This document shows, one piece after another, positions 1 through 35,074 of a stretch of DNA of 64,000 bases. The translations under genes were made by a program, and so were the position numbers. The stretch is from Leptogorgia sarmentosa. Its lineage: Eukaryota. Positions within the stretch are counted from its first letter, which is position 1. Every line of letters starts with the position of its first letter. The notes beneath the pieces are model-generated. The model was not told where the DNA came from, did no database searches, and saw only the letters and a program-made list of their open reading frames with translations. The DNA is taken from positions 13,702,001 to 13,766,000 of the forward strand of contig OZ210885.1 of assembly GCA_964658305.1 (NCBI GenBank). The letters are read 5' to 3'.

Positions 1-491
1 TTCAACATTCCAAAGCTTCACAGACCCACCGATAGACCCCGATGCAAAGCGACGTGAACTATCATGACCTCCTACCTCGCCTTTAACTTGAGAAATGGCA
101 TCCTCGTGTGCTAGGAATTTCAACTGCGATTTATTGTTAAAATGGAAGCATAACAGTTCTCCGTCATCACAACCAAGAAATGCATATTGTGACCCAAGAG
201 CAGTAATGCAAGTGACTTTAACATCTGGTTGACTCAAATTAATGCTGGTCTCGATATCATTAAGAGTTCTTAGTTCGATCCTGTTTACCTCGTCAACAAA
301 AACGAAACGGACATCATCACTTAATACGCAGACAAAACGTATGGCGACTCCAGATTCGGTCTTTGCGAATTGAACTATTTTAGAACACTCTATGTCGACC
401 AGCGACAATGTTCCCGAACTGCTTCCAGACAGAGCAAATTTCCCATTTGATGTCATGTCAATTGCTGTAACTATCGAGTCGTCAGGGTGAC
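1..491 (-). CDS. Copy A exon 14 (partial): WD40
   Basis: atgcag|GT CAC CCT GAC; colinear with the paralog exon at 61209-61702 apart from one 3-nt deletion; no stop seen. Confidence 0.85.
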
Positions 492-3400
492 CTGCATGAA
501 GGAAGTAAAATTTTTATTTGAAGTATTCAAGTATGCGACGCTTCAGCGGTGTAGCCTGCCAATTATTGAAAAATATCGTTCAGACGACAATTAATCTTCA
601 TAGGTGCAGCAATAGAAATTTTCTTCAAATCCGGGTAGTAAAATGCATCGCTGATATCGAAAACGCAAAAATAAGTCATTCACTGTTGTGAATAAAAGAC
701 TAGTATACTGGAATAAATGCCGTTTTCCATTACAGTCGTTTTGCCCGCGCGGGCGGAGCGAACGATTTTAACTTCGTCAAAAATCAGTCGCGCGGGCACG
801 CCAAGAAAGTTGAACGTAGTTCCACTTCTAAGCGTGTCCGCGCGCGCAAAATTAGACAGAGAACGCTCAGATTAGACACCCATAGCAAAAATTGAAACAT
901 GTTTGCTCTGCCCGTGCGGGCAAAGCGACTGCAATGGAAAACTGCCGTAAATCACACCAATTTCATCCGAAATTCAATCACTTTCACCTGATAAACGGTA
1001 CGCACATTGTACGAACTTTAATTTGAATGGCCATAATATGTTTTTTATTGTTCCCAATCATTGCAGTTATACTAATTAATTTTGACACACTTTTATCCAT
1101 TGTAGCGATGGATTTTTGTTTCTTTACTTATTTTCAAATTTGAAAATTTGACTAGTTAGGCTCGATTTAGGCGTCTAATTTTCAAATTCAAACAATGAGG
1201 GAAGTACTCTCATCTCAATTTGAAAAAGGAAGTTGAAACGAAAGATCTACGAAAGAACGTAGTATAGATCTTTATGTATACACCCTGACCCCATTGACGT
1301 TGGCTGATTTCTACACGGCCGTGTGTCCGAAAATAATTTTACACGGTCGAATAATTTAGAAAACATATTAGAATGTTATTTAAAAAACATAAAAATTTAA
1401 GGAGATATAGGTATCCAAATAGCAACATATTTTGAAAGTTTTAACTACTATAGTTTCAGCGGTTTTACAGCACAACAGTTTTTGAAGTCGTTTTGATTGC
1501 GTTTCACTAAGTACCTTCCTTACTTCACTGCAATAGTCAGTAGTGAATGTACGGACAAACAATAACGTTATATATCAAAATATGTGTATTTTGTTCAAGA
1601 AACGCTTCGACACGAGGAATAGCAGCGATTCATGCTGTTACCTTTTTTGGAAATAATTTCAGTATTATTTTTCCAACACATTTGCAGGTCAATTGTTACC
1701 CGGATTGTTTTGCATTCATTTTGCATTCCGTCAAACTCATAACTGACGGGCGAATAGACCATTGATTTGCGACTGGATTCTGTATTCTTATAAGTATATA
1801 GGATGACCCAGAAGACACAATATAAGCGGCAACGATAAGTAACGTAGTCAGCATAGTTAGTGATTATGCACTAAAAACGACATCTTTCATGTAAATTTTG
1901 TGGGCTTCAAGCGAATATAGAAGAAGACAGGAAACATAACTTGAATTGTCAGTGTTCGATTCGACTATTATTGCGCATTGGACTGGGTTGACTAATTTTT
2001 GGAATCTCGTAGTTTTGGTATTCTTTCGCTACATGCAACACGACCTAAATAGCGGATACAGGTTTGTAGATACTCGTGACGAAACCGCTTTAATTGTATT
2101 CTCCGTAATCCTTTAATACACAAATTATAATCAGAACAGAAAATAGCCTGTAAAGCTAGCCAAGACAATTTCAGAGCTAACACGTAATCGAATTCAATAT
2201 TTGACTCATTCGCGAGTGAATGCAAAGTAAATTTTCGGGAAAAATATATTCTCACTTAAAACGGATATTTCACACATATAAATTATTGTGTGTATGAATA
2301 TAGTAAAAAATCCTGTAGTCGCATCAAAGACTTAAAAGTATTTGGAAGTTTCAAATATTCCTTGATTTACCCACCTGCATTATGGTCGACCCAACTAGCA
2401 GTTGAAAGTTTCCGGTGGAGAAACACATTATTCTGAAGCAAGCCAAACAAAAGATCTTTGCCGTCGGGTGATATTACAGGTGCGACCCTCGGACGTACAG
2501 TCGATACTTGCAAAGAGTCGAGATTGATTTCACAAATATGCATATCAGCGCTGCATGTGTAAACCATGTTGCGATCGCATGCTATTTCCACTGTATAGGA
2601 CACGGGTAAAATGACATCTTTCAAAGACGCATCAGGATTTTGCCAGTCCCAGATGAACACATGGTTATCTTTGCATCCAATTATAACATGCAACCCATCA
2701 GAACTAAAGCGAACAATCTCAGGTGTGCCATCGCTATCAATTCCATTGATCACACTGCCATCAGACAAATTCCACACCTTAAAAAATAAAAGGAAAAATT
2801 AATATTCTGCATGAAGCTTAAAACTTGTGATATAATGATTTATCAAAACTAATTGTGAATATAATAACTAACAAGCAAAATAAGTTTCGTTGCTTATATT
2901 TTGCGTGCTACTCAAAGCGGTTACTGGAAGCCAGTTTTTAAAGATGTAGAAAGAGCATAAAAAGTTAGTTACTCCGTTCCAGATTAGTTTTTACGTTTCA
3001 TTTTGGAAAATATACGTACACTTGAGCAATAATATGACTGAACAAAGCTTCTGTATGCATAAATAAACCAATGGCGGCCATATTGGTCTGAATAAATTTC
3101 CTCCAAAAATGGCGTCTTTTTCCTATTAAATTTGGCCGTGAATAACTAATGAGGTCACACCAAGATGGACGCCGTGTGATTGATGATAAAGCTTTTAAAC
3201 GTTCTAGAAACCACTAGAAAAGTTAAGGCAAGCTCTGTGTATGTCTTAAACTGCAAAAGACATTTTCTTTATAATCCGACCATGCATGTTGTGATACCAT
3301 TTACGGAAATTGCGATCGATTTCACTCATTTTAGTATTTCATCTCATTACGGAACTTCAAAATTATTGACTGAATTGAAAAGGATGATAAATTCAGTACT

Positions 3401-6400
3401 TCGAGATCAGTGGGTTAAAGGGCTCGAACAGCAAGTTTTGCCATTTCATGAAAAGAAGTCGCGCAAAATTCCCAGAAAGCCATCTTAATGAACAACATTT
3501 ACAGTTGTACTGCTTTGTATTACGAGCGACTATTATTGAGATATTTTATACCCTTTATTTAAAAAGTTCTCTTGTTTCAACGCATAACTCGAATAGCAAT
3601 GGATCGAGTTTATGGTAAAATGAAAGGGACATCGTCGAACATGTTTTCGGGCATTTTCAGGTCTGATTTTGTTCAATTGGTATAATCATGCATGATCATG
3701 TGGCAAAAACCTAATATCAGTTCACAACTGTATAAAAAAAATATATTTTTCTATGTTGCGAAAGACAACTAATTCACGACTTCATTTACTTCAGGTGAGT
3801 AGGGGGGGGGGGGGGGGGGCTGCTTTGATCCTAAGATTCAGTACCAACTGCGACGTTAGGAATTAGGCTTATGAGTTTGGAATAAGAAATATATATATAT
3901 ATATATCAAATGTCAATTATACGTAACTATAGATACCGATCTTGAACAATATATATATTGCGTCGCATCACGAATAGGTAAACTCGTACATGACAGAACT
4001 TCAGCATTCAGTAAGTTGTTGCTGGGTCTTCCAGCAAGACAAAATAGGTAGTAAGTACATATGTGTACGTTCACCTGAAACATAGGTCTGAATGAAGTTG
4101 ATGTATAGTTTATCTTAAATCTTGCATGACAATCCATTCCATAACACATGGTAAATTAGTAACTTACTGAATCTGTCGAAATTTAAAGCTGTTTATGAAA
4201 TTGAAAGCCAATGCTTCAATGCTCGTATCCATATACTGATATACAATTTTCCTAGACTATTTTTAATATTAAAATATAACTTACTTCAAACGGTCATTTG
4301 TTACGTTTTCTTATTATATATTATATGTAAATGTACATTTCTTTCGGTTCCGGTTTAGGATATGTCAGTACGAAGTCCTGGAATGGATTAAATGTGAAGT
4401 TACAGGTTTCAAAACAAAGCGCAAAGCGCGGATGTCGTGCAGTATAAGCCAGAGTTTCCAGTCCATGTATGCCTTCGATTATCTAAGGTCTGATACAAAC
4501 CTTCTTTAATTTTAAGAACACATCTGATATAACATCAGAAAATCAAAGTTATAGTTTATGCCAAATCAACCGAAATCTGCGTATTACATATACTGACACC
4601 TGCACCCTGATGATTTCCTCTGTGTTTTCTTCATGAATTATTAATGAGTTTCAGAAGTATATATACCCATGTTTTGTAAAAATTGTATACATTCCTAATA
4701 ATGACTACGCCGAGTCGAAACGTGGAACAAACAATTCAAAAAATTTCTTGTGTTCGGATGTTTGTATTTCTGTATGCACAGTATATGGCTAGTAGCCTTG
4801 TGTACCATACCTTTATCGAGGACTTCTTTGAGAATAAGATATTCCCATCCTTTGAAAGCGACACGACATAGCGATCATCAGCAGAGACTGCAACATGTTT
4901 TGCCCATTCAAGGTCACCTATTAATCAGGAAGGAAAAATAATCAATTCAGAAATTGAAGTAAACATTAAAAGGATATTTTCTGAAACAGTCAGAAATGAG
5001 ATGTGCATGATCAGCTTGGACGCGTTATTAAAATTAATGTAAAAATCTTTGCAATTTAAGGATTTATATACAATGAAAAGGAAACTCTTGAGGAGTGGAT
5101 TAAATACTGTATCTAATATGGCTGGATACTTTAACAAGCAGCAAAATTTCTATTCACCAACTGAACGATAGGCAGTGAATTTGTTTTCTAACGTTTAGGT
5201 AGTAAGTAGAATTTTTGTTGCTTGTTGATGTTATAATATCCGGCCGAACCTTCACGGGTCGTATATTGAACCTTATTTTAGTGGGCTAGACCATAAACTA
5301 TCAAAAGAATGGACTGGAAAACGCACGCTGAAACTGCACAACAACCGTGATACGCTTTATGTGGAACCCTGTAACTTCACATTAAATCCTTTCCAAGACT
5401 TCGTATAGACATATTTCAAACAAGAAGAGAAATGAGTGTGCATCTATCCACGGTTCAAGGCAAAAACTCATTGTTGCAATAAGTGGTGAGAAATTTTATA
5501 TCTTGATATTTTGCTTGCGTTGTGTTTGTCATTGTTGTCTTTCAGTATCAAATATTCCGTATCTCTACACTCTTCTTTATACTCCTGTAATAAACAAACA
5601 ACTTCACAGTTGCTCCATTGTACCGTTATTATTATTTACTCCTTGTGATCGCAAAGCTCACACGGGGTCACTCGATTTCTCACGGGGTCACTCGTTTATT
5701 TTGAGGAGATCGCTAGATGGTATACTCCAAAATAAGATATCCGCGACTGCTGTACCTTCACGTCAGCGGTGATAGAAATTTCTATTGGCGTATTCACAAA
5801 ATAAACCAGTCCCAAACCATAAATCTGACCCTAACCACGAGTACCAAACCATAACCAAAGGTTAGGGTCAGATTTATGGTTTGGGACTGGTTTATTTTGT
5901 GAGTACGCCAATAGAAATTTCTATCACCGCTGACGTGAATGTACAGCAGTCGCGGATATCTTATTTTGGAGTATACCATCCAGCGATCTCCTTTATTTTA
6001 ACGATCCTTCACAATTGGTAAATACAAATCGTATGCACTCGTCAACCGTGAAGTAGCCATCAATCTCTATGTATTGTCTTTCTGTAAACGAGAGGAACTG
6101 TACGAATTTTCTAAAGCAAAGTGTATAAGTAGACAATCGCCAAATCTCATAAAACATTTCCCTTTCGTCAATGATGTAAATAGAGATGTGTACGATTTGT
6201 AAATAATAAAATTCGAATAAACGAGCCAACTGCGCATGAAGTAATTTGTTTATTGAATACAAGGAATAGTGTAGAGATACGGAATATTTGATACACACAG
6301 ATGACAATGACAAACACAACACGAGCGAAATACCAAAATATAAAATTTCTCACCACTTATTGCTTTGTTTTCAAGTTTTATTTCGTCATTCTGCATGAAA

Positions 6401-9400
6401 CTAGTTGAAATTTTGTAATTATGATTGGTTATAAGAATATCAAAGTAATTCTTTTCTTTACATGCAATTATCTTAGGAAATACAAATTAACGGCAATTAA
6501 CTTTATTAATTTACGAAATCCTGCTATCCATTCAACTCTACTTAACCATCGGTTTTCTGTCTTCATATCAGTGCAGAACGTTGCAGACAATATCAATTTA
6601 GTAAAATAAAAATGAATTTAGTCAGTGAAATGAAATGAAAACGAGATCGTCCGCAACCTATTTATAAGAAAGCTGACCCAAATAGACAATTTGAACTATA
6701 CATTTGACAGAAAAGCACTGTGCATGTGTGTGAAGATTCCAAACTTTGAAAGTACCATCATTTGAAGCGGTAACGCATCTAGACTCATCACGAGCGATTG
6801 TGATATCTGTGACGTGATTTGAATGATCAGAGAGACTGTATTGTTCCATGTACGCAGCAATTCCCAGGTTCCAAACCCTGATACTTCCATCCCATGACGC
6901 TGTCAATGCCTTCTTTGCATTGGGAATTATTGCGACACCGCTGAAATATTACAAGTTGATTGTTTATTTCTAATAATAATTTTTTCTACGGAAAAAAGGC
7001 AAAGACGATCTCTGTCAGACCAATGTTATCAAAATATGCTGTATAATTTATTCATACATGATCTGGGAAATATGTCGTATTCATCAAATTTTAGTGCAAA
7101 TGAAAACTACACCTATGGTCACTTTAATTTTTGCAAAAATCTTTCTATTACTATGTCAACAATTAAGAAGATAGATAGATAGATAAAACTTTTATTCACA
7201 TTGGGTAGTCCCGTCAGTAATAAAAATAACTGTTATCAACGGGAGCCCTATAGACATATTGTAGAGTTCAGTACTGCAGAAAATCAACGAAAGCAACAAT
7301 ACAAGATAGGGTAATGAAAGATGTACAACAGGTAAAATTATGTTGCATTGGATGTCATGCGCTTAATTTCCTACGTTTATCCCTCATTAAAATCTTTCTA
7401 AAGCCCAAGTCGTCCATTGCAAATAAGCACGACTATAGCCACAAGCCAATTAGTATATTAGTGTAATAAATAGAAATTCTTGTAGCGTTGCGAACAAATG
7501 GATGACTGAAAATTACTTTGATGGCGTTCATCTTTGCTATCTTTTCAATTCATCAATAACCGATTTCAAGAAGCAGTACGTCTAAGTGTGACTGTTAAAT
7601 ATCGTAATAAATTAATACAATTACACAAAACAGAATGTGTTGTATGTTAAGCTTAATGTTATGTATCGGGTCTTCGTTGTTGCCTTGCCTGCATAACGAT
7701 CCTTTCGCTAAATTAGATATAGCTGCTAGAGTGAACCCACCTGATGTACTTGGTATGACCTTTATAACAGGAAAGGCACTTTCCAGTGTGGAAACACCAC
7801 AACCTCACACTTCCTTCATCGTCTCCAGAGATAATATACTTTTTATCATCGCTCACAGCAATACTGGAAACACGAGATCGAACGTCAAGGGTACGAATTT
7901 CCTGATACGTTTTTAAATCCCAAATTTTTATTATCCCATCGTATGAACCAGACACAAGCATTGGATTGTTTTTTCCTGAATCTAAACGAGAAACGTCGCA
8001 CTTTAGTCGAACTGGCACAAAAAAACAAGGGAAAGCAAAGTACATGATATTCTAAATATATTCAATAACTCGATCGCTGACAGGAGAAATTTTTATATAT
8101 GCATTCTGCATGTCCAGGCAATGGATTCTGCAGTAGTAGAATACCGAAAGTTTATTTTGTTGGTACCGTTAGGATATTGAAGAGAAATTGACGCAAAAAG
8201 AAATTCCAATGTGTCAGGATAAATTTGAAATACTCAAAATATGGGCGAACCGTCTGGCACGTACAATAGTCATGATCACGAATGAATTGTGCAAAGTAAC
8301 ATCATTCTTCCAGTTAGTTTTGCATAATGTTAAAGCTCATCCTGGTTTGTTTGTGAAATATCGAACATCTTGCACAATTGTTTGCCATTACACAAGGAAG
8401 AGATGATTACATTTTGGTTCAATTCGGCTGAGAATCAAGCAAAACATTTATGAAAAAAAACTTTCGTTCCTTTATTTTTTAATGCGTAATGAAGTTAATT
8501 GATATTCTGGATGTGTTGTGTGAATTAGTATATTTACGGTACCAAATTTGGGTGAAAATTTATTAAGCCCCCACCATCTACTTAGTCCCCTCATCAGTCA
8601 AGCGGCCACCTGAAAGGAGGAAAACATAAATATCCCCCAAGGGGCTAAATAGAGGAAATACGGTAGTCTTTCTTGAAGCTGATCGAATAGTTAATTTCGC
8701 AATACGTGTTTAATTGGATTTTATACAAAACAAATTTCCTTCTCGTTTAATAAAAATACATAAGAAATACGCAGTCGTAATCAACATTTAATTTGGGCCT
8801 CAAAGTTCTAAAAGTTTGTTGAAGTTATTTTAAAATTTCAGGATAATATAAGTGTTAAAACTAAGTTTAACTTCTGAAAAGTCTAAAATGTTTTTTCCTG
8901 AGGAAATATCCGAGTACCTAAATTTATAATTGCTATTTCTACCTATATCCATACTATGTACTGTACATAAAGTCACGGAAAAGTCTAATGAAAGATCGTA
9001 AGAACTCTGCGTTGGTGCAATTACTCAAAACCAGAGTGTAACAGTTCTGAACAGTACATACACTGTAGCAAATACCGCAATGGGAAATTTTCATTTCTGC
9101 ATTACATCATTATTAGTTTGCTCATGTATTCATACTTATGTTTGGGAACATAACTGTGTTTAGCTGCTCTTAACTGTTGCCTAACTGCTCTTTCATGTCA
9201 CTGAGCAGCTGTGATAATTGACTGATTAAATCCAATTATTATCACATTTATTCAAGCAACTAACCTACCAAGTTCTAACAGTATAGCACAATGTTTGTCA
9301 CAACAATTATAAAACAGGTCAAACAATATAAATTTTGTCTGTTGGAATAAGAGGGTCTGAAGTCAAGATGGACAAGACAAGTCAAACGACACCTGGCTAT

Positions 9401-12400
9401 ATGTCTTGGCAATGGACAGTATATCTAAAACAATATTACTTTACAAACAACATTCATGTTGGCTTCGATCCATTTGTTACTTTATCTATATAATTTCATA
9501 AGTTAAAAACAAATGGTATAAAATGCTGTCATATTCTGTTGTATTGAATTCTATTATATATTGTAGTTCAATTTGATACATGCGCATTAATTAGATACAT
9601 GTGAAACGGCTAGAATTGTTCTTGGTTGATGTATCCCTATGAAATGCATTTCAGAGCAGTGGCGTAGGATGGTGGGGCACTTTCACCCCCAACTTTCATG
9701 GTTATAAGTGCCGTTTTAAAAAAGAAATTGACCTTCTTTCATGCCTAGGATTTGTACAGCTTTCTGATAGACATGAGAATTTGCCCAAATGTACTAAAAT
9801 ATTTTGTAGGATTCCATCATTCATTAGCTTTTAAATGTTTTTATCCAAGATGCCGCCTTGCTGATTGCAAGTTGCAAATACAGGAACAAGTTTTTATTTA
9901 AAGTTGCAACATTTAATAGTAAAGGTTTGGATTCTGTTGTCCTTGTGCCTCCCCCTCCCCTACAAACTACAACTTGATTCCTATGCCCTTGTTTCAGAGC
10001 TTGCTTTTATTTTTACGGCACACTATTATTACTTACAAGAGGTCTCAACGCTAATAAAGTATACAATACCCTAAATGCCAAGTCTTTTGAATCTACTTGT
10101 ACAGTATCACAATTTATACATTAAAGTCTGCGACACAGGGTAATCAGTTGAAATATACACACACAAGCAAATTGTCTCAAAGTATATTTAGAAAGCTAGC
10201 ATAGATAAATCTAATGGCCATTTTAAAATACTCTTAGCATATACAAATACAACCAGCCTAAAAATTTGAAAGGAATCAGAAAGTCCTAAAATAGTGCTTG
10301 TACATGAAAGCACTGGCTACCACCATACTAACATTAAAGGAAAGACATTGCTTTCTTTTTAGGCATAATTTTTCATTACAATATTAGAATGCTGTTGCAA
10401 GCAGGTATTTTTGTGCAATAATTGGGAAAATTTATTCCAAAACATGATATTCCCCTCCAATCATTGCTTTATTGAACCATTAAGGAAGTTTATAATAAAG
10501 AATATGTTTTATCCGAATGAAATCACAAATATAATTCTGAAGAGACTCTATTGAAGTAAGATCTTCAAAATGTTATGAAATATTAACTCATACAGTATTG
10601 CATACCTGTTGCGACAACACATGTCACAAAATCTGTATGGCCAACCAAACTGGCCTCAAAATTTAGTGTATCGGCTTTCCACAACTTGATAGTCTTGTCA
10701 GGATATGATCCAACACGACCAACATTAGCAATGAACTGTCCATCTTTGGTCGTACACAGCGACCTGACTCCCTCAGGAATACTTGTTGAGAGGTTTTCTC
10801 CGGTAGATACACAATACACTTTCAGCCCTACAACGCATGATGGATACTCGTCAGACTGATGTTTCAATAATGTCTAACCCTAGACGATTTTGTGAAATCT
10901 TGTTTTTAATTGTGTCCTTCTCCGGCGCTGAACATGCTCTGGCTGTAGCTGGCTTATGTTTTTACACTGCGTTTCACTGCCCTCTACACGACGTTTACAG
11001 TTAACCGCTGGTTTGAAGATACGCAGTCGCTGGAATCCTCAAACCAGCTGTTGCAATTATTGTTTAAATATGAACAATTTGTACTTTTGGCGAAGGTTGA
11101 GAGGTGCTACTAAAACAGACGTATCTGGTTTTCCCAGGAAATCATTTTACTACAGCTACGTTGTAAAACTGCTGTTCCTGTCATCAAACACAAAAAGAAT
11201 TAGTGAACATGGTCCAATCACACGATACTATGCCGTTTGTAAATTTCATAAACCAACCCTCTACCATAGCTACATTGTTGTCAAATTGTATGCATTGTAA
11301 AGGGCATCCATACCAGTGGTACTGTTGGTAAAACTTGGTTACAGATCGCGAAAGTTACATCCGTGAAGCAAGGGCCATGTATGGCAGTTGGGCTTCGTTC
11401 AAAATAATGAAAATATACTTTGTTTTCAAATGTAGTCGATCATGTACAACAGGTTACAGGTACGAGTTCAGATAAAATGGTTGAAATGTACGAAGGATTA
11501 ACAACGAGCTCTCTTTCTCTCCAACCCGTTTCCGAAAGTTGAAATACAAATTTTTAATTCTTTTTTTTCCACTAAAATATAGACAAATAAAGACAAACAC
11601 CATTGAAATCCTAGTAAAATGATCTTTCGAACGGTGGGTCGCATGTTAGTTAAACACAACACAAAAAAAAATAAAGATTGATCGTCGGAAACGTAAGGCA
11701 TTAGCATCTATCTGAGAGAAACAGAGTCCAATATGTTGAAATCCATGTCCTTATTTCTCCCTGAAGCAGCATATTCATGAAACCTGTTTTATGTTCGTGT
11801 TATTTGCACATATAAAAACATTTTTACAAGCTTTTCTGTAATTGTCGGAAATTTCCGCACGCGCACGGCATTTACTAAAACAGGATAAATCAGGTTGCGC
11901 AATAGTCTGAAACACGTGGAAAACATGCCTTTGATTACGTAGGGTGCGTATTCGTATGTTTTTCAGTCTTGGATAAACTCACTTCTGGTTTATTCGCACG
12001 CGACAAAAAAAACACGACAGGTGTCCCAGGAATTTCGCCCCCCCCCAGGCAATTATAGTCATTGGGCGAATTCGACCTAAATTAATATGGTGTTGGAGAG
12101 AAAGAGTACTTTTCGTAAGTAATACATTTTTCTAAAATATATTGACGATTATGCTGCACGAATCTGACGAAATGCTTCTGAATTTCACATATTCGTTACG
12201 AAGCACAAGTTGAATACATACAGTGAATATTAAACTCACTGTGATGACTGCGTCGCTATTTAGAGTGTACTCCCACTCAAATATGGAACGTATTTAAAAT
12301 AAGAACTGAAACAATATGCATCAATCCGCTTCATAAACGTTCTTGTATTAAAATGTGAAGCGAATTTTTTTAATAAATAGCGATGTACACAGTGGCGTAA

Positions 12401-15400: not shown

Positions 15401-18400
15401 GTACTTTATTAAAATCTTTCTATCTATTTAGTTCATTATCAGCGCTAAAAACAGGAATTAAAGCTCAAGGCTCGTAAAATTGTTTTTACAAGAGTCATTT
15501 GGAACTGCAAAGTTTTGTCAATTAAAGTGTTACTGCAACGAATTTTACGACCTCATTTTTTTATCCTAAATAAATATTCAGGTCGAAAGATGAAATTTGG
15601 TGTATAGATGACTTGAATGGAAGTAGCTAAATTTCGCCTCCAAACTTCGATATCGGATGCGAACAAAACAGCCGCCATCTTGTCACCTTGTGACGTCACA
15701 AGTGTAACACGTTTAGCGAAGCTACTAGTAAATTCTGTTACGTTAGAGCTATACTCTGTGTTTTTGGTCGGAAAAAAGTTCTTTTGAAACAAAACTTGAA
15801 CATAGGCATTTTAAGACAATATGTTTTGCTCATGTCGAGTAACGAGTCTGGCGGGGACCCGCAATCGTGTGAAAGTTCAAGTGAAACTGACCCGGTGTCG
15901 GATGGCTCAGTTAACTCGGATCAGTCGGGTGGCTCGTTAGTTCATGTCACATCGCACTGCTTTGCGTAAGACGCCGAACCTATATTATTATATATAGCAG
16001 AACCTGGGGAAACGAGTTGTGTTCCAGAAGATCCAGGTGGATTGTTGCCAGCAACTCTTGAACAAAGAAGCGACGGTAGAATATATAACTCTGGAACAGC
16101 ATTCACGTAAATCGTTGCGCTGAAGGTATTTTATTTTGTTTTTCAAACCAGCGCAGGACGTGCATGAACTACAAGTTGTAGAAGTTGTTGTTGTCACATC
16201 GGGCATGTCGTCACTGGGCAAGTCAAAGGGTGTATCATCATCAATATCGTGACTTGTCATTGCTATCTCCTCAACTTTTGCTGGAGAAGACACCAATTTC
16301 ACTGGCGACAATCTTTCACTGCCACGAATTACCTAAAAATATACGAATGATTTAAATATAAAGTGCTTCGCATATTAGTAAAATTTACCATGTGCGTGGG
16401 CGAAGAATTCGCCTTTGCGCGCATGCATAATTATACAATACTCGTGTTATTTACCTGTCTTCGTTTTCGCTCTGTGATCTGCTGTTCGGCCGGTGGTATA
16501 ATTCCAGCTACATCAATCGTAGGAACAACATCTTCTTTCAATCTCCTTTTAATATTTAGCCATTTTGCCAACTCTAGATTCATGTCGTAGCACGAATCTT
16601 CGAAGTGGGCTCAAAAATACCAAGAGGTCGCCGTTGCGTGAAAACCCTGTCTATGTGACTATGTTTACAGACAAATTTCACGCACTTATCCGTCTCTGAG
16701 CATCTGTTTCTTCATTAGGGAATAGATGCATAGATACTCCTTCAGTTTTGCTATCATTGGCGCAGATAACTAAGTTAGGACCGTCAGCAACGCAGCGTTT
16801 TCCTCCGCGAGTAGCTTCACGTCTATTGGAAATATACGCCATGCTGAAAATGTGTTACACTTGTGACGTCACACGGCATTAAGATGGTGGTCGAAAAGTT
16901 CGCACGGAAGTAGCCAAAAATCGGAACTTTGAAAGGCCATAAAATCCGTTTGAAAAGAGCAATTTTAATTCTGTTTGCGATGAACATATTCGGAGAGTAA
17001 GTACTTTAAAATATGCCAATAAAAAGGGGTCGAAAAATTCGTTGCAGTAACACTTTAATAACCAACCACAATATTGTGACTACGTGTCAAATTTTCGGTT
17101 TAACCCAGATAGTAGCAATTAACATCCACTGACAGTTCGATATTAGCCCAGTAGAAATTCAATTCAAATCCATCAAGAGTTGCAAAACAAAAACAGTGCA
17201 ATAGCCAAAAGGGGAAAAAGTTGCAGGGTACAATTGTAGAAACTTCCTAAAATTAAGATACGGATCGAACATCCAAAATTCTACTCGCGCTATGACAACG
17301 ATTGTTTTCTAGTTCGTCCATTCCTTTCCTTACTTCATTCATTATGTAAGAACTAACATCATATCGACTGTGATCATACTCAACGTCAAGAAAATTAACA
17401 AAATTTTCTCTGTGACTACACAGGCTGTATAAAAAACCTGAACAAATTTTAAAAAGCTCTTAACTTCGCGAAGCGACTCGTAGTGCGAAGTTATTGATTA
17501 ACATTCATTGTTTGGGCACTTATAATAATGTAGAATTAACAAAAAAAATGTTGAAATTTAAATTTGGAAAATCGAGGGATATGTGTCTTTTCCAACAAAA
17601 AATGTCTTGCGCACGAAATTTAAACGCTTAAAAGTCATTTTGAGTTGAGAAAATGGAAACTTTGCCGAGTTGTGTATTGCTTTTGAAAGTTTCAAGAACA
17701 CTGGTTGAGTTTAAACCCTCGAAAACGTCGCACAAACTTACGTTTTTTAGAATAATTAACTTTTCGCATGCTTAATTTAGGCTTGCATACCTGTCTCCTG
17801 GTCTAAGACGCTGATTGAACCGTTGTCTAAACCACAAATAGCAAGAGTACAGTCTGCAACATTGGTCGTGGCTAACGAAGTTACGGCCGTATCAAAAGTC
17901 TTTCGCGATATCTCAGAGCCTCCGAGATCCAGACACGAAGATTCCGGTAAAAGATAGCAGGTCTTCGTGCATGTTTCACGGAGTTGCTCTGATATCTTCT
18001 GTATCCTTGGATACTCTTGATACGATAGCAGCCTGCCTGAAAAATAAATATACACAACAGTGTTATGATATATCCTGGCAAAATCATAAAATTAGGCCTA
18101 CATATTATCGTTCTTGCCTTTGCAACTTATTTTTAAAATGGATAGCTTTTTGATAGAAAAAAGTAAAACTGATAAAACAAGTTATGATTTACATTATTAT
18201 ACATTTAAAATTTATTTTCGTTCCTGATTGGTCAGAAAGCACCGGCTAATTCTCAGTATTCGGTATTTATTACGTATTTTCCGCCGATGACGTCATCAGC
18301 GTCCAATAATTATTTTTTTGGATCGAACTTGCATCCAAAAAAAAAATTATTGGACTCTCTCGTGCCCAAGCCCTAGCGCTGTCAAAAGCTTGAAGCTAAA

Positions 18401-21400
18401 AGCCCGCGAAGAAACAAACAAACAATGGCCTGCAGCAGATTTGCTTCGCTGAATGAAAGTGAACTCTCTTTTAAATGTATATCTCTTCTCTGCAATCCAT
18501 AATACCCTTTGAAGAATATTTCTACCGCACGATTGTTTCACGGAACTCAATTACATCATTACTGGTTCTATTATATCGCCACTTGAAACTTCGGTCAAGC
18601 TTCGTTGATAGTTTATGGTTGTAGAAAGCCAGGTTAAGGTGAAGTGATTAGTGCACTCTTTGCCAGACTTGGGCAGATGTTTTCCTTTACCCGAAGATGA
18701 GTACAGTATGGAATTCCCATGATTACGCCGTGTTTGTTTTTTTATATTCAGTCTGTAACCAAATAATACAGGTTCTGGTTGCGCATGACGCAAAGTAAGA
18801 CAAGACAAGGGAAGGGAAGGTAAGACAACGCAAGAAGTGTGCGGGAAGGGGAAAATTACGGGGCAAGAAAGGCCAAGAAAGAGCATTCCATAGCAAGCTG
18901 AGGCATACAATCCTGGACAAAAGTTGTTGTAAATCCAACTCTTTCCTCCAGAATTCAATGTTGCCACGTGAAATCGCAACAAAACATTGCAGGGCTTTAG
19001 CAAACACGAAACACGACGCGAAGTCAGCGGGGACGTGAAAATGGCGTGGCATGGGAGATGTTTTACTTCCCGTTTAGACTAGAACGTCGCACATGTTCTG
19101 TTGAGGACGGCATCTGGGCTGTTTTCACCTCCTCTCCAGAACGTCACATATGAATGCTTGTGTTCAAACATATTTTCCTTGCTAGTTCTGAATTTTATTT
19201 TGATTGACAAGCGTGCGTCTAAATAACTCAACGGGTTTTAGCTGCGTTAATTCTTAGCAAACATTTTAATCGCCATAATAAAATGACCAAATTGTATACG
19301 TCGTTAATCGGTTCAATGTTAGTCGTTTTTTACCAAATGCCACATTTTAGAATACAAAAGTTGGATGAAAACAACCTGACGTTAAAATGAACAAGTAAAA
19401 ATAGAAATAAGATGAATTTGAACCACTTGAACAGAAGAAAACAGATTTCAATCATTTTATTTGCCTTAAAAAACTGTCAATAATTGATACATATTCAAAC
19501 ACACGACGGAAAAGTTGGACCTACATATGGATATTGATATCGAACAGTTTTATTAAACGGAATGAAGTATTTAACTTGTAAAAATTACTTGCAGATTTGC
19601 GATTTCAAAACCGTGAAAAGACCGATAAACTGTCTTTCCAAAGAAACACATTAAGTGTTACTCAAAAATCTTCAGAAAAATCTTCTTGCTCGCTTTTTGC
19701 CTAGTTTATTACAAATTTAAAAAGACATAAACTACGCTTGATCCCAACCCAGATCCCGAAAACCCGAAAAAGAAAAGTCGGGAAAATATTGGGAAAAAAG
19801 TTTTAACTTGAAATCACTATAGCACGAATAAGCGTCTAACCGGGCCTTGAACTATAAAACTGCGACAGACACATCGCGCGCCTAACCGTCTGAGCAAATT
19901 TCGAGCTCGCTGAAATTCTTCGAATGTTTACGAAAAGAAAATAAGCAGCGGCGTACAACAACATTGATTTTGGGGGGTGGGGAGTTACAACGCTTTTGTT
20001 CAAGATTGAATCTTGGACAAACGTTGTTGTAAACCAACGCCCCCCCCCCCCCCCGCAATTCAATGTTGCTACGTGAAATCTCCCACCTTGATTTTGGGGC
20101 TGTTACAAAAAATTTTCTCACGACTGTAGCATGGGGAAAAGAATGGAATGGTAATGATAATGTAAAGGTAAACTAAACTATAGGAAAACTGGATAAAATA
20201 AAGCTCATTATTTTATTACCTAGCAGTTGTGGACAGATTGAATCAACATTCTTCTCGATAACGTGGGAAGAAAACATTAACGATGATTTGAGGAGTTGGG
20301 TTTCCTGTGACAACGAGGCGCCCAAAAAACGAAAATCTGACACTACGGAGGGTAGGTCAATGTGTTTGACTTTTTGTTGAAGCCAGTTTAAATCGAAGAA
20401 CAGTTGAAGTAGTTCGCCATGTTGTTCTGAGGAGGAGATGTGATATGGTAGGAACTTGAAGTAATAGTCTTTTTGCGCGGTAGTTGAATTATCATTCCAT
20501 TCACCGTTCACGCATTGGCCACGAAGTGTCTCCACAAACAAACGCTGAACACCAGTTAGTGAGCCCGTGGCTTTAAGTTTTCTCCGGGCAAAATCCAGCA
20601 GTAAATCATGCACACGGTAGCTTGTCTTCTCTTGAAGTTGAGGTCCTGAAAAAAGATTATTGGGACGTCAAGCATCAATCAGTTACTGACATTGGTGCAT
20701 TGACAAGCGATATCCAACGTACAGTAGGTTTTCGTTTCTCTAGAACTGACTAGTAAATAGTAATACAAAGATAAAAACTATTTTGCAACTTGACTTCTGA
20801 CTTAAAGGACAGTTATTCAATGCACGACTTGCGGATTAGAGTAATTTTAATGTGAGGATTTACTAAAACATGGCTTCCACATAACTTCCTTAAATTAAAA
20901 CTCGCTCGTGTACCTTTTTGAATCATGGATTTTCTTTCAAGAGCATCAAGTATACGTCTTGTTTTCATAGGTTCACACGATGTTCTACCGGCTCCTTCTG
21001 CGGACCAAAATAGCTCCAGTACGTCTGAAGGTATATTTGTATCTTCTGGAAATATACCAAAATCTAGGAACTTTTCTTGTTCCGATTGTTCTAAGCGTTC
21101 AAAGCTAATATTAATGGCGGTAACGATGTTATCATAAGGATAATCGTCGGTGGCAACCATTAAATGAAGTTCTTCCAAATCAGTAGTAAATCCATCTAAA
21201 ATATCTTGCCAAGCCTGTTCCGACCGATTGCCGTTTAAATTTGAGCCAACAAGTGAGAGGGCCAGCGGCAGGCCTTTGCACTGTTTCAATAGTTCTTCAA
21301 TAATTTGCTGCATTTTTGGACTAAAGCTAGGCAGTTCATCTTGCTTAATCCCAGCACTTTGAAAAAAGAGCTCTCGAGATTTATCCTGTTCCATTATATC

Positions 21401-24400
21401 GAGTTCGTAGACAAAACCTCTTGAACCTCGGACAACATTGACATCTCTGGTAGTTATCAATAACTGACATTTTTCAGACAAGGTATCAAACACAGCAACG
21501 TGGTTAACATTCCAAACATCATCAAGAACTACAAGACATTCTTTATCGCTCTGCAATAGATAGAAAAATATTAGATGTAAGATACTGTATGGTCTTTTTG
21601 CTGAGTGTCTTCACACTAGACAGCCTGGAAATGACTTCACCGCAGTGCGACTGGCCCCTTCAGCTTATTAAAACTTTAGAAAGTGTTTAAGGAACGCGCC
21701 ACGTACATTATTAACTGCTATTATGCAAATCCGATTTAAGATATATTAAATAGTGCTTTTAATTCAAGGGTTACACTGCGGAGCCAAGAATCTCGAACAG
21801 TTAACCTATGCAGATTAACACCCTCTGGTACATCTCGCACTGAGTTTATTTAAAATATTTAACTTTCTTTTTTAGAGTAGGAAATGTGTTGCTGCAGGGC
21901 ATTTTAAAAATAACTTGGGCACAAAAACTAAGTTCTTTTCGACTCAAAATATGGAGCATGTTGTACAAGTTATTAAAGTGTTGTGGAATTTGCTGCCCGC
22001 AGTGTTGTCACTGCGAGAACTGGATTTTGCGCTGCTTCCTGCGTGATTACCCATTAATTTAATGCATAATTGGATATTCCATTAATTTTCAATGCGAATT
22101 CCAAGGCCTTAACTACGCGAATAAATCGCGTTAAATCCAGATTTCGGACATCGCGCGTTCGCCTCAGCGAGTGCGTAAGTTACAAACCTCAACGAATGTG
22201 CATAAGTTACAATGTGCATAAGTTGCATGGACGACCCAGCGGCCTCAAACACAAGTTACGGGCAAAGTAATACCATATTATTCAAACAATTATACATGCA
22301 CCTTTTAATAATAATCTAAATAATATGGTAATGCTTTAACCTTAAGCCCATTTTCCACTCCATTATTTCGCGACAGAAATTGACAAGAATATGATGTTTT
22401 ATATTCATTCGCCACTGAAGAAAATTGTTCCACTTCTGTAGTTGTTGAAAATGTTCACTGTTGGCGCGAAAGAACGAAGAATTAGATTTGTCGGTGGCAA
22501 AATTATTCGCGAGCGGCGGCCAAATACGTGAGTGGAAAACAGGCTTTACGCGAGCTTGTCCGGGAAGAATAAAAATAAGGCTTGTTTGAAATTGATTTCG
22601 AACTCAAAAAATTCGAATGCATACATACTGTGTTCTTTTTAATCCAGTCTTGTGCTTCACGGATAACACTGAAAGGTTTTGCTCCACCAAGAACTTTTAC
22701 TAAGATGTTAATCAGTGCTAAACAGTCAGGAGTTTCCCCAACATCAAGCCATATCACTTGACGTGAGACTGAAACTTCCCATGCGACAGCCAGAGCTAAG
22801 ATGGTCTTACCCAGACCCCCCATACCACGGATACCAACGACGTCACCGCTGCAACTTCCCACCACACCAACTTTACTATTTCCCTCCGTAAGTAACTTCA
22901 ATATCTCGTTCACTTCTGATGGTCTTCTCACCATGTCACGAGGTAGACTGCGTAAACCATACCAATCTAAGATAGGAAATAAACGAGTTATGCTGGATGA
23001 GTACAACTGAACCTAAAAAATGTATAGTAAATGCATGGAGATTATTCATTCAAAAGATATCTCTTTACAAGTTTTTAAATAGTTCAACATGACTTGATAT
23101 ACACATGCACAAAACGAACACCAGAACTACAAAACAAAACGTTGTCATGTATTTAACATCGATTTTGGTAAAATATAACTTTCATGGTGATTAGTACAAG
23201 AAGTGTCCTAACTTTGGTTTTTCATTTCATAAACATGACTCATTCTAATACCTCAATGATGGAAATTAACCGCTAATACCTTTGATGGATGGAAATTGCT
23301 GAAAACATAAGGGTGCACTAGAACACAACGCATAGTACAATTGCGCTCTCTCTGTTCCATCAGTTCTCATAATTTGTATATTTGAGCTCTGAATTCGAGA
23401 TCACATGACAATAAAAATAAACGAATTCGGTATTTTCACATAAATGGAAAAATGAAACTTAAATATCTGACATTGCCATTTAAGCACTCTCGTTGCAGTT
23501 GAGCTGGGTTGGCTCTTCACCAGCTTTTTTATTTGGTTGACCACTGATACCGCAGTAATTAGGGAGTTATAGAAAGATTTTAGGAAATCTTCCTAGTTGT
23601 CAATTTCGGCATTTTGTTTATTTTTGTCCATCCAAAACAGGCGAATAGACCCTGTCCTCTGCTCCAATCGGAAATGGCTAATTAAAATACCTTTATTTTC
23701 GGCAATCTCTGAATATTCATGTTTTTCTTCACTATGACACATCGTCCTGATTTTTTCCTCAAGAGCACCAAGTTTCTCTTCAACATTTTCTGTTTTGCAG
23801 CGTAGTTCACGTAACTCTAGACCAATGTTCGACTCTATATTATCAAGTTTTGTTGTCACTCCGGTCATCTGCAGAGATATAAGATTCCTACCGTTACGTT
23901 CCGAAACGAATAGCATAATAGCACAAATATCCTGCGCCATGATCGAAAGGCCAGCTAGTAAGCAATTATAGACGACAAATGGCCGCGCGGTAAGGCGAGA
24001 TATGCTCAGCTTGTAAAAACAAAAATAGAAATTCATCAAACCTTCGTGTCTGTTTCAAGATGCCAATTTTCAATACATCTGCGAAGTTCTGACAAGCTTT
24101 CTTTAATTAATTTTGAGTATCGTCCGTCAACAAAAACGTTTGAAACTATCAATAAAGAATGAATGTCAGCTAATGAAACAAATAGAGATTAGATTGGTCG
24201 AGATATGTATTATACGTCAGCAATTAAAGCAGCTGTGTCACGGTCTGCGCATCTGTTCTGCGCATAATATGTTAACCTCGTAAAATTTCAGAAACTGCCA
24301 GGAAATACTTTATGTGTCATGGTGCCGTCAGTGAACACAGAGATAATGTATATGAATTGATTTTATACTTTAAAACTTTTTGGATTGTTCAACTAATTGA

Positions 24401-26123
24401 AAACGTTGACAAAACGTAAACAAAAGTTTGTGACACAGGTTTGTCAGTCATAGTCTAAAATGTTTCCGTCCGAAAACACGTTTTTGCACCCATGACCGAT
24501 ACAGACCAAGAATTCGAACAAGAAAAATCCGTGCCTATAATGACTGAAGGAAAATGATGGACTATACCAAATGTTTCAAAAGTAAATAACTGAAAATTTG
24601 ATGTGTCAAGTTTATACATTTTAATGTTTTATTTACACGTTTCTTATTAAAACACTTGCACTGTGATTTTAACAAGCAAAGCTAGCCAGAGCTTATAAAT
24701 ATATAAATTGAGAACAAATCTAATAGCAATATTTTGAACCTTATAAATTCCGAAGATTAAAATGTCTTAAAAATCATGCTGGGGAATGAAGTAACTAAGA
24801 TCTTCAAGTACCGATTTTGTTTTGTTTTTAAATGCCATGAACTGACTCAGGGCCGTCGCTAGAACGTTAATTGGGGGGGTGCATATTCATATTTTGGCGT
24901 TCTGCCGACTGATTTCTTTAGAAATTAATTCATAAACAACTGATTTCAAAAGAAATCAGTCGGCAGAACGCCAAAATATGAATATGCACCCCCCAATTAA
25001 CGTTCTAGCGACGGCCCTGAACTGACTTTTATATTTTTGTTAACGACCAACAGCACAAAATACTATTATCAGTAGTTGGTTCTTTTGTGTATTGCTCAGT
25101 ATTACTGTACGGGGGGGGGGGTCAATAAATACTTCATCATGTATTTCTTATCCTTGAAACGTTGGCGCCTGAAGAGGGCGTGTTACGAAATTTAATGATA
25201 TTTTCATTCTTTCATTTATTCCATACAATTATTCTTATTATCATTGTGCATTGGTTTACAATCTTCGAATTTCAGTTTTTGACTTCAAAAGCAAATGAAG
25301 CATTTTCTCGTGTATTCGTAACAATTAGCATACAGTCATTAAACTTCAGCAAAACATAACAGTAAACGCTAAAGAAAGAGTTACATTGCCTGCCAACACT
25401 GCTGTGTTGTGAACACAATCACAACTTATCAATCAGAAACACAATAAATGGTGACATTCCCACGCTGGAAGCTGCAGCACCACACCTTCGAACGATGATA
25501 AAGTATAAGCAACTTAAATCATTACCTTTGTTTTTCCAATCCTCAAGATCATCACACACTTCTTTTTCAGCCGCAGTTGTTAAATTGATATTTTTCACCA
25601 ACGATTGCAGGTGTTGAATCGCGTCATTGAACAAAGCATTGGTCCATTTTGGAAAGTTACAATGGGCCCATTCGTTTCTCACGTTTGACCTTACATTCTT
25701 TGCGTACACTGAGGCACCAGATGTTATGAATGGATCTGCTTCACACATGATAGTCAGTAAAGCAGAAAGATCCATTGTATCGTCAAAACCTGTAAACTTT
25801 GCCATGAAGGGTTGAACGAACAACTTTGCCAAAGACAGAGCATCTTTCACCGCGTAGTCATATGCACGGGGAGATTTATGCACATCATTACCGTTGATGT
25901 TTTTATATTGTAAGGAAAAGGTTGATGGCGGAAGTGTTTTCTTATACTTTCCAGAAGTTTGTCTGTCAATTTCATCAGGTGGTTTACATAAGTCTTGATA
26001 CCAGCTCTTCAATTCTGCATCGACAACTTTCCTCAAGGTGGGAGTGACAACTTTGGTAAGGCAAATACCTGTTACAACCCATCTGGATTCTTCATCTGTT
26101 GTGTAACTGGCACCGCTTGCCAT
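1..26123 (-). CDS. Spliced gene (copy A): HEPN-like effector / coiled coil / NB-ARC (STAND ATPase) / HD2 / WD40 repeats; APAF1/NLR-like; 3' end runs off the window
   Basis: 14 GT-AG-bounded exons join in frame (4497 nt, about 1499 codons in window): 26123-25526, 24169-24042, 23868-23691, 22966-22629, 21550-20914, 20645-20220, 18036-17791, 13520-13302, 10827-10606, 7981-7741, 6940-6678, 4917-4811, 2777-2375, 491-<1. Motifs RNEWAH, GMGGLGKT, LVVLDDVW, LITTRD, CKGLPLAL, VHDLL and many GH..WD-type repeats. Confidence 0.88.
719..945. mobile_element. MITE, PIF/Harbinger-like
   Basis: Imperfect TIRs GCCGTTTTCCATTACAGTCGTTTTGCCCGC...GGGCAAAGCGACTGCAATGGAAAACTGC. Confidence 0.6.
2375..2777 (-). CDS. 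Copy A exon 13: WD40
   Basis: ttttaag|VWNLSDG...IIGCKDNHVFIWDW; donor GCAG|GTGGGT. Confidence 0.83.
4811..4917 (-). CDS. Copy A exon 12: WD40 (not in ORF track)
   Basis: taatag|GT GAC...WAKHVAVSADDRYVVSLSKDG...SIK|gtatgg; phase 1 to 0 fits both neighbours. Confidence 0.75.
5476..6363. mobile_element. Non-autonomous TIR element (about 95-bp inverted ends) hosting a nested MITE
   Basis: GCAATAAGTGGTGAGAAATTTTATA...TCTCTACACT mirrored at 6268-6363. Confidence 0.65.
5704..5992. mobile_element. Near-perfect palindromic MITE with CCCTAACC/GGTTAGGG core
   Basis: About 133-bp arms around a spacer of about 23 bp; TTTATTTT occurs on both flanks (imperfect TSD). Confidence 0.8.
6678..6940 (-). CDS. 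Copy A exon 11: WD40
   Basis: atttcag|C GGT; ALTASWDGSIRVWNL...VTASNDGTFKVWNL. The donor is ambiguous between two phase-1 GTs. Confidence 0.82.
7741..7981 (-). CDS. Copy A exon 10: WD40
   Basis: LVSGSYDGIIKIWDL...ISGDDEGSVRLW...GHTKYI; donor phase 2. Confidence 0.85.
9657..9991. mobile_element. hAT-type MITE
   Basis: CAGTGGCGTAGGA...TCCTATGCCCTTG with 8-bp TSD TTTCAGAG. Confidence 0.75.
10606..10827 (-). CDS. Copy A exon 9: WD40
   Basis: ttgtag|GG CTG AAA; DKTIKLWKADT...LVGHTDFVTCV; donor ACAG|GTATG. Confidence 0.82.
12390..12906. mobile_element. hAT-type MITE (CAGTGGCGTAA ends)
   Basis: Termini CAGTGGCGTAA / TTACGCCGCTG and subterminal GGGCCC motifs; TSD not recognisable. Confidence 0.55.
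13302..13520 (-). CDS. Copy A exon 8: WD40
   Basis: LQGHSVKVSCLAVSQSGTILASGSWIGSTILW; acceptor aaacag|, donor GACG|GTAAG. Confidence 0.85.
13630..13861 (+). mobile_element. HINE/DINE-1-like non-autonomous Helentron
   Basis: 5' subTIR GTGCAAAGTTTC, internal (ATGACTAC)n microsatellite, and 3' hairpin TGCAAAGTTTC-TTT-GAAACTTTGCA. Confidence 0.6.
15526..17054 (-). mobile_element. Kolobok-like DNA transposon remnant with decayed THAP domain
   Basis: TTAA TSD on both sides; TIR AGTGTTACTGCAACGAATTTT; minus-strand THAP relic from ATG 16842 (RCVA...C...GVSMHLFP...HFEDSCY...LKEDVVPTI) with frameshifts. Confidence 0.75.
17791..18036 (-). CDS. Copy A exon 7: end of helical domain and first WD40
   Basis: ttttcag|GC AGG (GRLL...LLPESSCL...GLDNGSISVLD); donor ACAG|GTATG. 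Confidence 0.82.
20220..20645 (-). CDS. Copy A exon 6: MHD-equivalent motif and APAF1-type helical domain
   Basis: ttttcag|GA CCT...YRVHDLLLDFAR...YYFKFLPYHI...FDLNWLQQKV; donor CTAG|GTAATA. Confidence 0.88.
20914..21550 (-). CDS. Copy A exon 5: NB-ARC Walker B to winged helix
   Basis: CLVVLDDVW, LLITTRD, CKGLPLAL, FLDFGIFPED; acceptor ttgcag|, donor AAAG|GTAC. Confidence 0.92.
22345..22546. mobile_element. PIF/Harbinger-like MITE
   Basis: AGCCCATTTTCCACTC...GAGTGGAAAACAGGCT flanked by TTA. Confidence 0.6.
22629..22966 (-). CDS. Copy A exon 4: NB-ARC P-loop
   Basis: tttcctatcttag|AT TGG; VVGIRGMGGLGKTILA (Walker A); donor ACA|GTATGT. Confidence 0.88.
23691..23868 (-). CDS. Copy A exon 3 (coiled-coil linker)
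   Basis: ctgcag|ATG ACC...; heptad-like KLDNIESNIGLELRELRCKTENVEEKLGALEEKI; donor AAAG|GTATT, phase 1. Confidence 0.72.
24042..24169 (-). CDS. Copy A exon 2 (linker; not in ORF track)
   Basis: Acceptor tttcattag|, open frame ADIHSLLIVSNVFVDGRYSKLIKESLSELRRCIENWHLETDTK, donor |gtttga. Converts phase 1 to phase 0 exactly as needed to join exons 1 and 3. Confidence 0.65.
24848..25019. mobile_element. Young palindromic hAT MITE
   Basis: About 70-bp near-perfect TIRs starting CAGGGCCGTCGCTAG; perfect 8-bp TSD AACTGACT. Confidence 0.9.
25526..26123 (-). CDS. Copy A coding exon 1: HEPN-like (DZIP3-HEPN / CXorf38-DUF4559-like) domain
   Basis: ATG at 26123 just inside an acceptor (ttgtag at 26135-26140). 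Encodes ...MDLSALLTIM...VRSNVRNEWAHCNF...WKNK. Donor AAAG|GTAAT, phase 1. Confidence 0.8.
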
Positions 26124-29378: not shown

Positions 29379-29546
29379 TGTTGTGAAATGCGGGGTTCGA
29401 TCGTTAAACAGGAGGAATGGACTACAAATATGAACCTTTTAATCATAGAACCATCATAAACATAAAACACACATGCTAAAGTCAAAGCGCGGGCAAACGC
29501 GCCCGCTATTCTAGTTCAAACTGTACTTTATGTAATATCCATGACA
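29379..29546 (-). repeat. 3' LTR, 168 bp, TG...CA
   Basis: TGTTGTGAAATG...CATGACA on the + strand; preceded on the minus strand by CCCCCCTGGAGGA. Confidence 0.9.
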
Positions 29547-35072: not shown

Positions 35073-35074
35073 AA

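Follow-up and report, generated by a model that had tools for sequence, protein, structure and literature searches.

A predicted HEPN ribonuclease head on an APAF1-like receptor of the octocoral Leptogorgia sarmentosa

How might an APAF1-like receptor work if the domain at its N-terminus were an enzyme instead of a recruiter of partners? The question is raised by a gene on the minus strand of a 64,000-nucleotide stretch of the Leptogorgia sarmentosa genome (assembly GCA_964658305.1, contig OZ210885.1, positions 13,702,001 to 13,766,000), referred to here as the window, for which an original prediction, made from the letters of the DNA, had proposed a HEPN ribonuclease (RNase)-like head in front of an NB-ARC and WD40 body. 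The evidence presented below comprises a continuous 14-exon frame, spliced contigs, intact NB-ARC motifs, a head motif conserved among relatives and the nesting of three HEPN-headed copies among DED- and Death-headed ones. By analogy with better-known systems, and with moderate confidence, we read the gene as an APAF1-like STAND (signal transduction ATPase with numerous domains) receptor in which a DED or Death head has likely been replaced by a predicted HEPN ribonuclease, giving a self-contained sensor that would cut RNA once switched on.

A spliced gene with an APAF1-like body

The gene runs from position 26123 to the edge of the window through 14 minus-strand exons separated by 13 GT-AG introns, whose phases are consistent and give a 1483-residue frame without a stop, as had been predicted. 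Exon boundaries were set with the help of a relative, P0001, a protein of 1709 residues retrieved by a search with the head exon and encoded on a 5604-base contig that is probably a transcript assembly; the two align end to end with 56% identity over 1504 alignment columns. Exon 1 (25526..26123) encodes the 199-residue HEPN-like head, with the words DLSALL at residue 118 and RNEWAH at residue 149, and ends in a phase-1 donor, the codons of D118, R149 and H154 lying at 25770-25772, 25677-25679 and 25662-25664, respectively. Exon 2 (24042..24145) encodes a helical linker, which by alignment resembles the linker that follows this head in receptors of the TPR type, and exon 3 (23691..23868) a predicted coiled-coil linker, judged heptad-like by eye and without a coiled-coil program. 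NB-ARC starts in exon 4 (22629..22966), which holds the Walker A motif GMGGLGKT (residue 341, first codon 22824-22826), and continues in exon 5 (20914..21550) with the Walker B motif LVVLDDVW (412), ITTRD (438), GLPL (499) and the start of the winged helix, while exon 6 (20220..20645) carries the MHD-like VHD motif (630) and the APAF1 helical domain. After a linker, the first WD40 blade is reached in exon 7 (17791..18036), and further repeats occupy exons 8 (13302..13520), 9 (10606..10827), 10 (7741..7981), 11 (6702..6940), 12 (4811..4917, one repeat), 13 (2375..2777) and 14 (1..491), the last of which is cut off by the window edge, the gene's own 3' end falling beyond it. Completed with the tail of an upstream paralog, the protein would measure about 1714 residues, slightly fewer than the 1730 or so first estimated.

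Contigs from three runs of one study (X4-X6) skip introns 1, 2, 4 and 5 exactly in all three runs, including the joint 24145/25526 between the first two exons, and intron 3 in one of the three; a single 517-base contig spans from within exon 1 across exon 2 into exon 3. Overlapping spliced contigs cover exons 1-6 and link exon 1, with the head, to the exons that encode NB-ARC, a connection on which the original prediction depended, although the links are made by overlaps and not by one molecule, so that alleles or paralogs may be mixed. Of the 13 predicted junctions, beyond the five matched exactly, 6-7, 7-8 and 11-12 are backed by loose contig ends that read into the next exon (exon 12 in the last case) and 8-9 by a slightly shifted joint, and the other four (9-10, 10-11, 12-13 and 13-14) were not seen among the matches listed, one contig comparison having spanned 6400-26300. 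None of the 36 exonic differences listed for the contigs alters D118, R149, N150, H154 or the NB-ARC motifs. The spliced gene is real, and it is expressed, the RNA origin of the contigs being deduced from their intron-skipping joints. A splice acceptor is located at 26134-26136, 11 bases ahead of the start codon, where loose contig ends have several different sequences, which points to an untranslated first exon elsewhere that varies among copies; when the window was probed for such an exon with three sequences, none matched with three or fewer mismatches.

The body is that of an APAF1-like STAND protein, as its sequence motifs indicate and as the original prediction had it. All NB-ARC motifs are present (Walker A, Walker B, sensor-1 Arg, GLPL and MHD-like), with PF00931 at 79.3 bits against a cut-off of 23.5, and the APAF1 helical domain (PF17908, 44.9 against 22.8 bits) is followed by WD40 matches, in an APAF1-like layout. 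Apaf-1 is the best solved match both for exon 5 (E 1.5e-15) and for the NB-ARC-helical region of P0001, and it is among the top structural matches of a model of the P0001 tail. This model, with ~940 residues, 82 predicted strands and about 20 blades (predicted local distance difference test score, pLDDT, 74.7; predicted template modelling score 0.45), suggests that the WD40 tail likely consists of three propellers. The APAF1 tail, with its two propellers and 15 blades, is shorter. In contrast to human APAF1, whose switch motifs are all intact in the window gene, no CARD was matched, nor was Death, DED or TIR, on exons 1 and 3 (the 35-residue exon 2 being unscanned) or on the 110 head homologues aligned below, consistent with what had been predicted for the N-terminus.

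The head: motif conservation and family

The residues R149-N150-E-W-A-H154 fit the HEPN consensus R-phi-xxx-H given in 10.64898/2026.05.28.728550. Since a word of the form R[NDH]xxxH turns up in 1.4% of shuffles of the 199-residue exon, it is conservation, and not the word, that carries the HEPN case. Among 138 close relatives, R149, W152, A153 and H154 each occur in 137, and N150 and D118 in 136. A profile search with the head returned 540 clusters at 50% identity, from which 149 new representatives listed, with a median identity of 37%, form a distant set; 131 of these cover the motif, R and H are both kept in 122 and R[NDH]xxxH is matched in 117. Among the 110 representatives below 40% identity, H154 is found in 101/105, R149 in 98/105 and N150 in 98/105, and position 118 is D in 97/109 and E in 7/109. 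The R-x4-H signature on which the original prediction rested is conserved far beyond this gene.

Near-length proteins matching the head number 259, the 120 listed being 56-73% identical, and 109 of these 120 together with the window sequence make up the head alignment (n=110). Within it, HEPN_Swt1 (PF18731) is matched at E<=0.1 in 81 members (best E 2.4e-4) and DUF4559 (PF15112) in 37 (best E 1.2e-5), the window sequence itself having no DUF4559 match; two head relatives carry a precomputed PF15112 annotation. Neighbours in the ESM Atlas, at 0.93-0.97, are mostly mollusc clusters in which 11-38% of members bear DUF4559 or HEPN_DZIP3. AlphaFold models the head as helices throughout (pLDDT 88.8), and the motif sits where helix 137-153 ends. 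We assign the head to HEPN because motif conservation, sub-threshold Pfam matches and language-model neighbours agree, and on these sequence-derived grounds it is very probably a HEPN domain of a Swt1/CXorf38-related subfamily that lies below the Pfam cut-offs. A DZIP3-type head, the context originally named, was considered and rejected: HEPN_DZIP3 (PF18738) matches none of the 110 members at E<=0.1, and comparison of the profile with one DZIP3 domain gave a probability of 0.17% (E 0.36).

The other context originally named was that of CXorf38. DUF4559 reaches the 37 members mentioned, and the motifs RNEIMH of CXorf38 and RNEWAH of the window share RNxxxH (PMC3710099, 10.64898/2026.05.28.728550). 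For human CXorf38 a His167-Asp134 dyad has been proposed (10.64898/2026.05.28.728550), in which D134 precedes the His by 33 residues; D118 precedes H154 by 36 and is, by spacing only, a candidate counterpart. Whereas CXorf38 has a zinc ribbon inserted in its HEPN domain (PMC3710099), the window head has neither a zinc-ribbon insert nor a double-stranded RNA-binding domain and scores below the cut-off, and its conserved cysteines at 21, 46, 127, 155 and 190 are isolated, with no conserved cysteine pairs. Fusions of CXorf38/Swt1-like HEPN domains to NB-ARC-WD40 bodies are absent from the accessible text of PMC3710099 and 10.64898/2026.05.28.728550.

A probable exchange of heads, and the surroundings of the gene

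The point that the original prediction overlooked, and the best one, is that DED or Death heads occur in close relatives that share the body. The nearest named relatives are the octocorals Dendronephthya, Paramuricea and Xenia. A search with the NB-ARC region retrieved a cnidarian group at 39-59% identity, and among 43 proteins of the group tested only P0001 and P0140 bear the HEPN-like head. Five other heads were scanned: DED was found in two Dendronephthya proteins, one from Nematostella and one further protein, and Death in one from Xenia. The DED-headed Dendronephthya proteins named 'APAF1-like' are 52-53% identical to the window body over about 1200 residues. In a body tree of 18 rows (the window, P0001, P0139-P0147 and P0149-P0155, with P0148 omitted for want of a Walker A motif, the remaining listed matches set aside and no vertebrate APAF1 included), all three copies with a HEPN head fall into a single clade (98/98), which lies within a 100/100 group of DED- and Death-headed proteins, outside which fall Nematostella and bacterial proteins with TIR-like heads; the bacterial bodies show about 25-27% identity. 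One replacement of an adaptor by HEPN is the simplest reading of this tree, whose root rests on distant outgroups and which holds only three HEPN-headed sequences.

The head itself looks portable, judging from its sequence context. A Gly follows it in 117 of the 120 near-length matches listed, mostly open frames on genomic contigs, and in 41 of the 42 printed the head gives way to a short unrelated sequence, the pattern expected from read-through of a shared phase-1 donor. The likeness of exon 2 to the linker of TPR-type receptors makes it likely that head and linker came together from such a gene. Among 35 head carriers scanned (32 of at least 600 residues and three shorter), 16 have ankyrin and/or nSTAND3 domains, seven are of the NB-ARC/TPR/beta-helix type, four have NACHT, two Roc-COR and one each AIG1, kinase-RNase L and PARP14-RRM, with three showing no family; NACHT-LRR is among the scaffolds that bear the head.

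Several carriers deserve separate mention. P0002, P0004, P0005, P0007 and P0016 share an octocoral-type architecture of head, NB-ARC, TPR, beta-helix and MYND finger, the commonest among long head carriers in a set of 18 matches. In P0357 the head is fused to a kinase and an RNase L/IRE1 nuclease domain, P0010 has a second, DZIP3-type HEPN and P0265 contains two stretches that match it; all three are possible intramolecular HEPN pairs. P0140, whose linker contains a repeated seven-residue unit, has a body that is sister to that of the window (77% identical), and in head trees of 61 and 25 chosen rows its head groups in another clade. The discordance may reflect exon exchange for a second time or a chimeric assembly; a second, independent HEPN-exon swap is not claimed, as the approximately unbiased test did not reject joint grouping (p 0.22).

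Head swapping as such has precedent, since CARD, Death, DED and TIR heads have been described as exchanged among APAF1 paralogs, those of cnidarians carrying DED, Death or paired CARD heads (PMC2246300). Those heads are protein-protein adaptors, whereas the head of the window gene is a predicted enzyme. These paralogs and the stony-coral orthogroup OG0002938, of DEATH-NB-ARC-WD40 layout (PMC10236652, additional file 17), have the NB-ARC, APAF1 helical and WD40 body in common with the window gene.

HEPN-headed receptors are also well documented. HEPN-headed proteins resembling NOD-like receptors (NLRs) are among the commonest intracellular receptor types of corals (PMC8260672), DZIP3-HEPN-NACHT expansions are described from anthozoans (PMC8260672), pearl oyster (PMC9646362), other invertebrates (PMC8662601) and amphioxus (10.1101/2025.07.21.665930), and in cnidarians HEPN domains, those of the CXorf38/Swt1-like family among them, are on record as fused to NACHT, ankyrin and Death domains (PMC3710099). 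The invertebrate receptors with DZIP3/hRUL138-like HEPN domains share with the window gene the three-part plan of HEPN, STAND and repeats as well as the RNase hypothesis, but the window head belongs to another HEPN subfamily and its STAND module is an APAF1-type NB-ARC, not NACHT. In additional file 17 of PMC10236652, 112 of 180 WD40 rows are DZIP3-HEPN-NACHT-WD40, and all five NB-ARC-WD40 rows have DEATH heads and none is HEPN-NB-ARC-WD40; rows of HEPN-NB-ARC-TPR are present in the same coral table.

Within the window, a tandem paralog lies upstream on the minus strand, with its last three exons at 61702-61098, 55891-55642 and from 53691 to the stop at 53360-53362; its first exon in the window, together with the flanking intron, is 91% identical to positions 1-534. 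About 3 kb upstream of the start codon of the gene is a minus-strand Pao/BEL-type long terminal repeat retrotransposon (29377-35157), with a gag-like frame at 33632-35134 (DUF1759), a pol-like frame at 29531-33628 (peptidase, reverse transcriptase and integrase), both on the minus strand, and identical 85-base terminal repeats at 29377-29461 and 35073-35157. Adjoining its terminal repeat are hAT-type transposase pieces on both strands (35460-38421; DUF4371 and hAT dimerisation domain), and an inverted repeat of 1430 bases and 99.6% identity, its arms at 38323-39752 and 39978-41406 separated by about 225 bases, may represent either a foldback-like element or an artefact of the assembly. Between the two receptor copies, at 42631-50411, lie fifteen tRNA genes (Gly, Glu, Trp, Thr, Val, Ser and Cys), some of them in inverted duplicated blocks; a link between this cluster and the predicted RNase, for which proximity is the sole support, is not claimed.

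Proposed mechanism, alternatives and meaning

If the protein works like APAF1 and other STANDs, its WD40 propellers would hold the NB-ARC module shut until an intracellular ligand, likely derived from a pathogen or from damage, is bound, whereupon nucleotide exchange and ring assembly would follow. HEPN enzymology suggests that the ring would crowd the heads, hung on a helical linker of roughly 100 residues, such that two R149-N150-x-x-x-H154 motifs could pair into one active site, with the conserved D118 as candidate partner of H154. Cleavage of host tRNA, rRNA or mRNA, or of viral RNA, would then lead to translation arrest, cell death or dormancy with no caspase involved.

Several observations weigh against this reading. 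The window head passes no Pfam cut-off, HEPN_Swt1 giving 13.9 bits where 27.5 are required. Foldseek returned no match to the head at E<=0.001, re-alignment of 376 Foldseek hits gave a best Z of 6.6, to MOB1, unrelated bundles outscore Swt1 in VIA-align (an acyl-CoA dehydrogenase at Z 8.3), and a sequence profile search of the PDB found nothing at E<=10. In the ESM Atlas the recognition score of 2011 lies below the 2300 that marks a strong high score, which makes this evidence weak, and the family or clan is common to three of the ten best family-bearing matches. Structural residues (L101, N79, L123, N77, W15 and W160) are conserved as strongly as the motif, so conservation alone is no proof of catalysis. 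Apart from the head itself, APAF1 rings are heptamers. In a ring of odd number HEPN pairs would fill unevenly. The HEPN domain of Swt1, the closest solved, is moreover classed as inactive (PMC3710099).

This last point bears on the strongest alternative, which we nevertheless consider unlikely, namely that the head has a HEPN fold but serves as a non-catalytic module binding RNA or protein, the receptor signalling by recruitment of partners. The head does occupy the place of the adaptor domain in its sister proteins, whose DED and Death heads presumably recruit partners, its closest solved relative is the inactive Swt1, and in some relatives a second RNase-type domain (the DZIP3-HEPN of P0010 or the RNase L KEN of P0357) could be the real enzyme. 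However, 117 of 131 distant relatives retain R, N and H as a set, and the HEPN domains that PMC3710099 classes as inactive have lost the motif.

A slightly less likely arrangement is one in which the head, as an active half-site of the HEPN type, pairs mainly in trans with the same head on other receptors (TPR, LRR or ankyrin), so that two different sensors would have to fire together before RNA is cut. With 259 near-length head matches on many scaffolds, partners would be plentiful, and an odd-numbered ring, as in APAF1, would leave one head unpaired, but a ring of identical subunits offers self partners at a much higher local concentration.

That the head is a helical bundle outside the HEPN class, of unassigned function and with an R-x4-H that arose by chance, is in our view improbable. 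It would account for the failure to pass any curated cut-off, for the other bundles that rank first in fold searches and for the DZIP3 comparison at 0.17%; against it stand three separate weak HEPN signals, from Pfam (HEPN_Swt1 and DUF4559), ESM features and the HEPN chains in the fold ranking, and the Pfam match spans the motif itself (residues 138-179). In VIA-align the yeast Swt1 HEPN domain is fourth among 48161 chains (Z 6.8, root-mean-square deviation 3.3, 114 of 136 residues aligned), and at least five of the top 50 chains (Swt1, Csm6, AF_0298, SO_3166 and the AbiA C-terminus) are ones that we take to be HEPN domains, although a Z below about 13 is uninformative for helical bundles. The proposal of a HEPN head is supported in part, by motif conservation, weak Swt1 and DUF4559 matches and ESM neighbours; searches by fold did not pick out HEPN above other bundles. 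None of the observations named beforehand as fatal to the original prediction, such as a non-HEPN fold, loss of the R and H in relatives or transcripts that leave the head exon unjoined to NB-ARC, was made.

Least probable is a sensor of stress or for housekeeping, outside immunity, whose IRE1-like RNase would process a few chosen RNAs without shutting the cell down: spliced contigs in all three runs of the one study are consistent with routine expression, and IRE1 and Las1, both among the HEPN families (PMC3710099), act on narrow sets of targets, but tandem paralogs, a large and diverse family (540 clusters) and fusions to NLR, AIG1, Roc-COR and RNase L scaffolds are traits of immune genes.

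If we return to the favoured reading of an RNase-headed receptor, its analogues resemble it in how they work, as STAND-type sensors with a built-in enzyme. The SAMD9 nuclease is not known to be a HEPN, nor the SAMD9 sensor a WD40 domain. SAMD9 is a tested animal STAND-like protein with an RNase of its own that cleaves tRNA-Phe (PMC10246899), and such sensors, analogues in working, include SAMD9/SAMD9L, bacterial Avs and Apaf-1-like STANDs (PMC10246899, PMC13581612), some bacterial Apaf-1 homologues having a protease in place of CARD (PMC13581612). The novelty claimed at first was hence overrated, given SAMD9 and given the HEPN-NACHT-WD40 and HEPN-NB-ARC-TPR proteins tabulated in stony corals (PMC10236652). 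Receptors of the HEPN-STAND-repeat plan are already published, and what the WD40 rows of the coral table do not include is an NB-ARC-WD40 body under a HEPN head. Neither the HEPN-NB-ARC-WD40 combination nor a functional test of an animal HEPN-STAND was found in a literature search that left most subscription papers outside, so an earlier mention is possible.

Tentatively, and at a little less than even chances, we propose an octocoral RNase apoptosome, in which a portable exon for an active HEPN replaced a caspase-recruiting head, yielding a ring that would kill or silence cells through direct cleavage of RNA. On this view the RNxWAH head represents a large effector family (540 clusters), overlooked by standard annotation, which invertebrates have joined to at least six other scaffold types. 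What makes the locus valuable is this likely exchange of adaptor for enzyme in a body like that of APAF1, together with an effector family whose scores lie beneath annotation thresholds. Bodies that are about 52% identical and carry either a DED or a HEPN head amount to a natural experiment. Should the head prove to be an active RNase, coral immunity would gain a named direct effector arm, and animals would have made a caspase-free, enzyme-armed relative of the apoptosome, paralleling bacterial Avs and SAMD9. Receptors with RNase heads would then also be undercounted in inventories that rely on Pfam cut-offs, below which the head lies.

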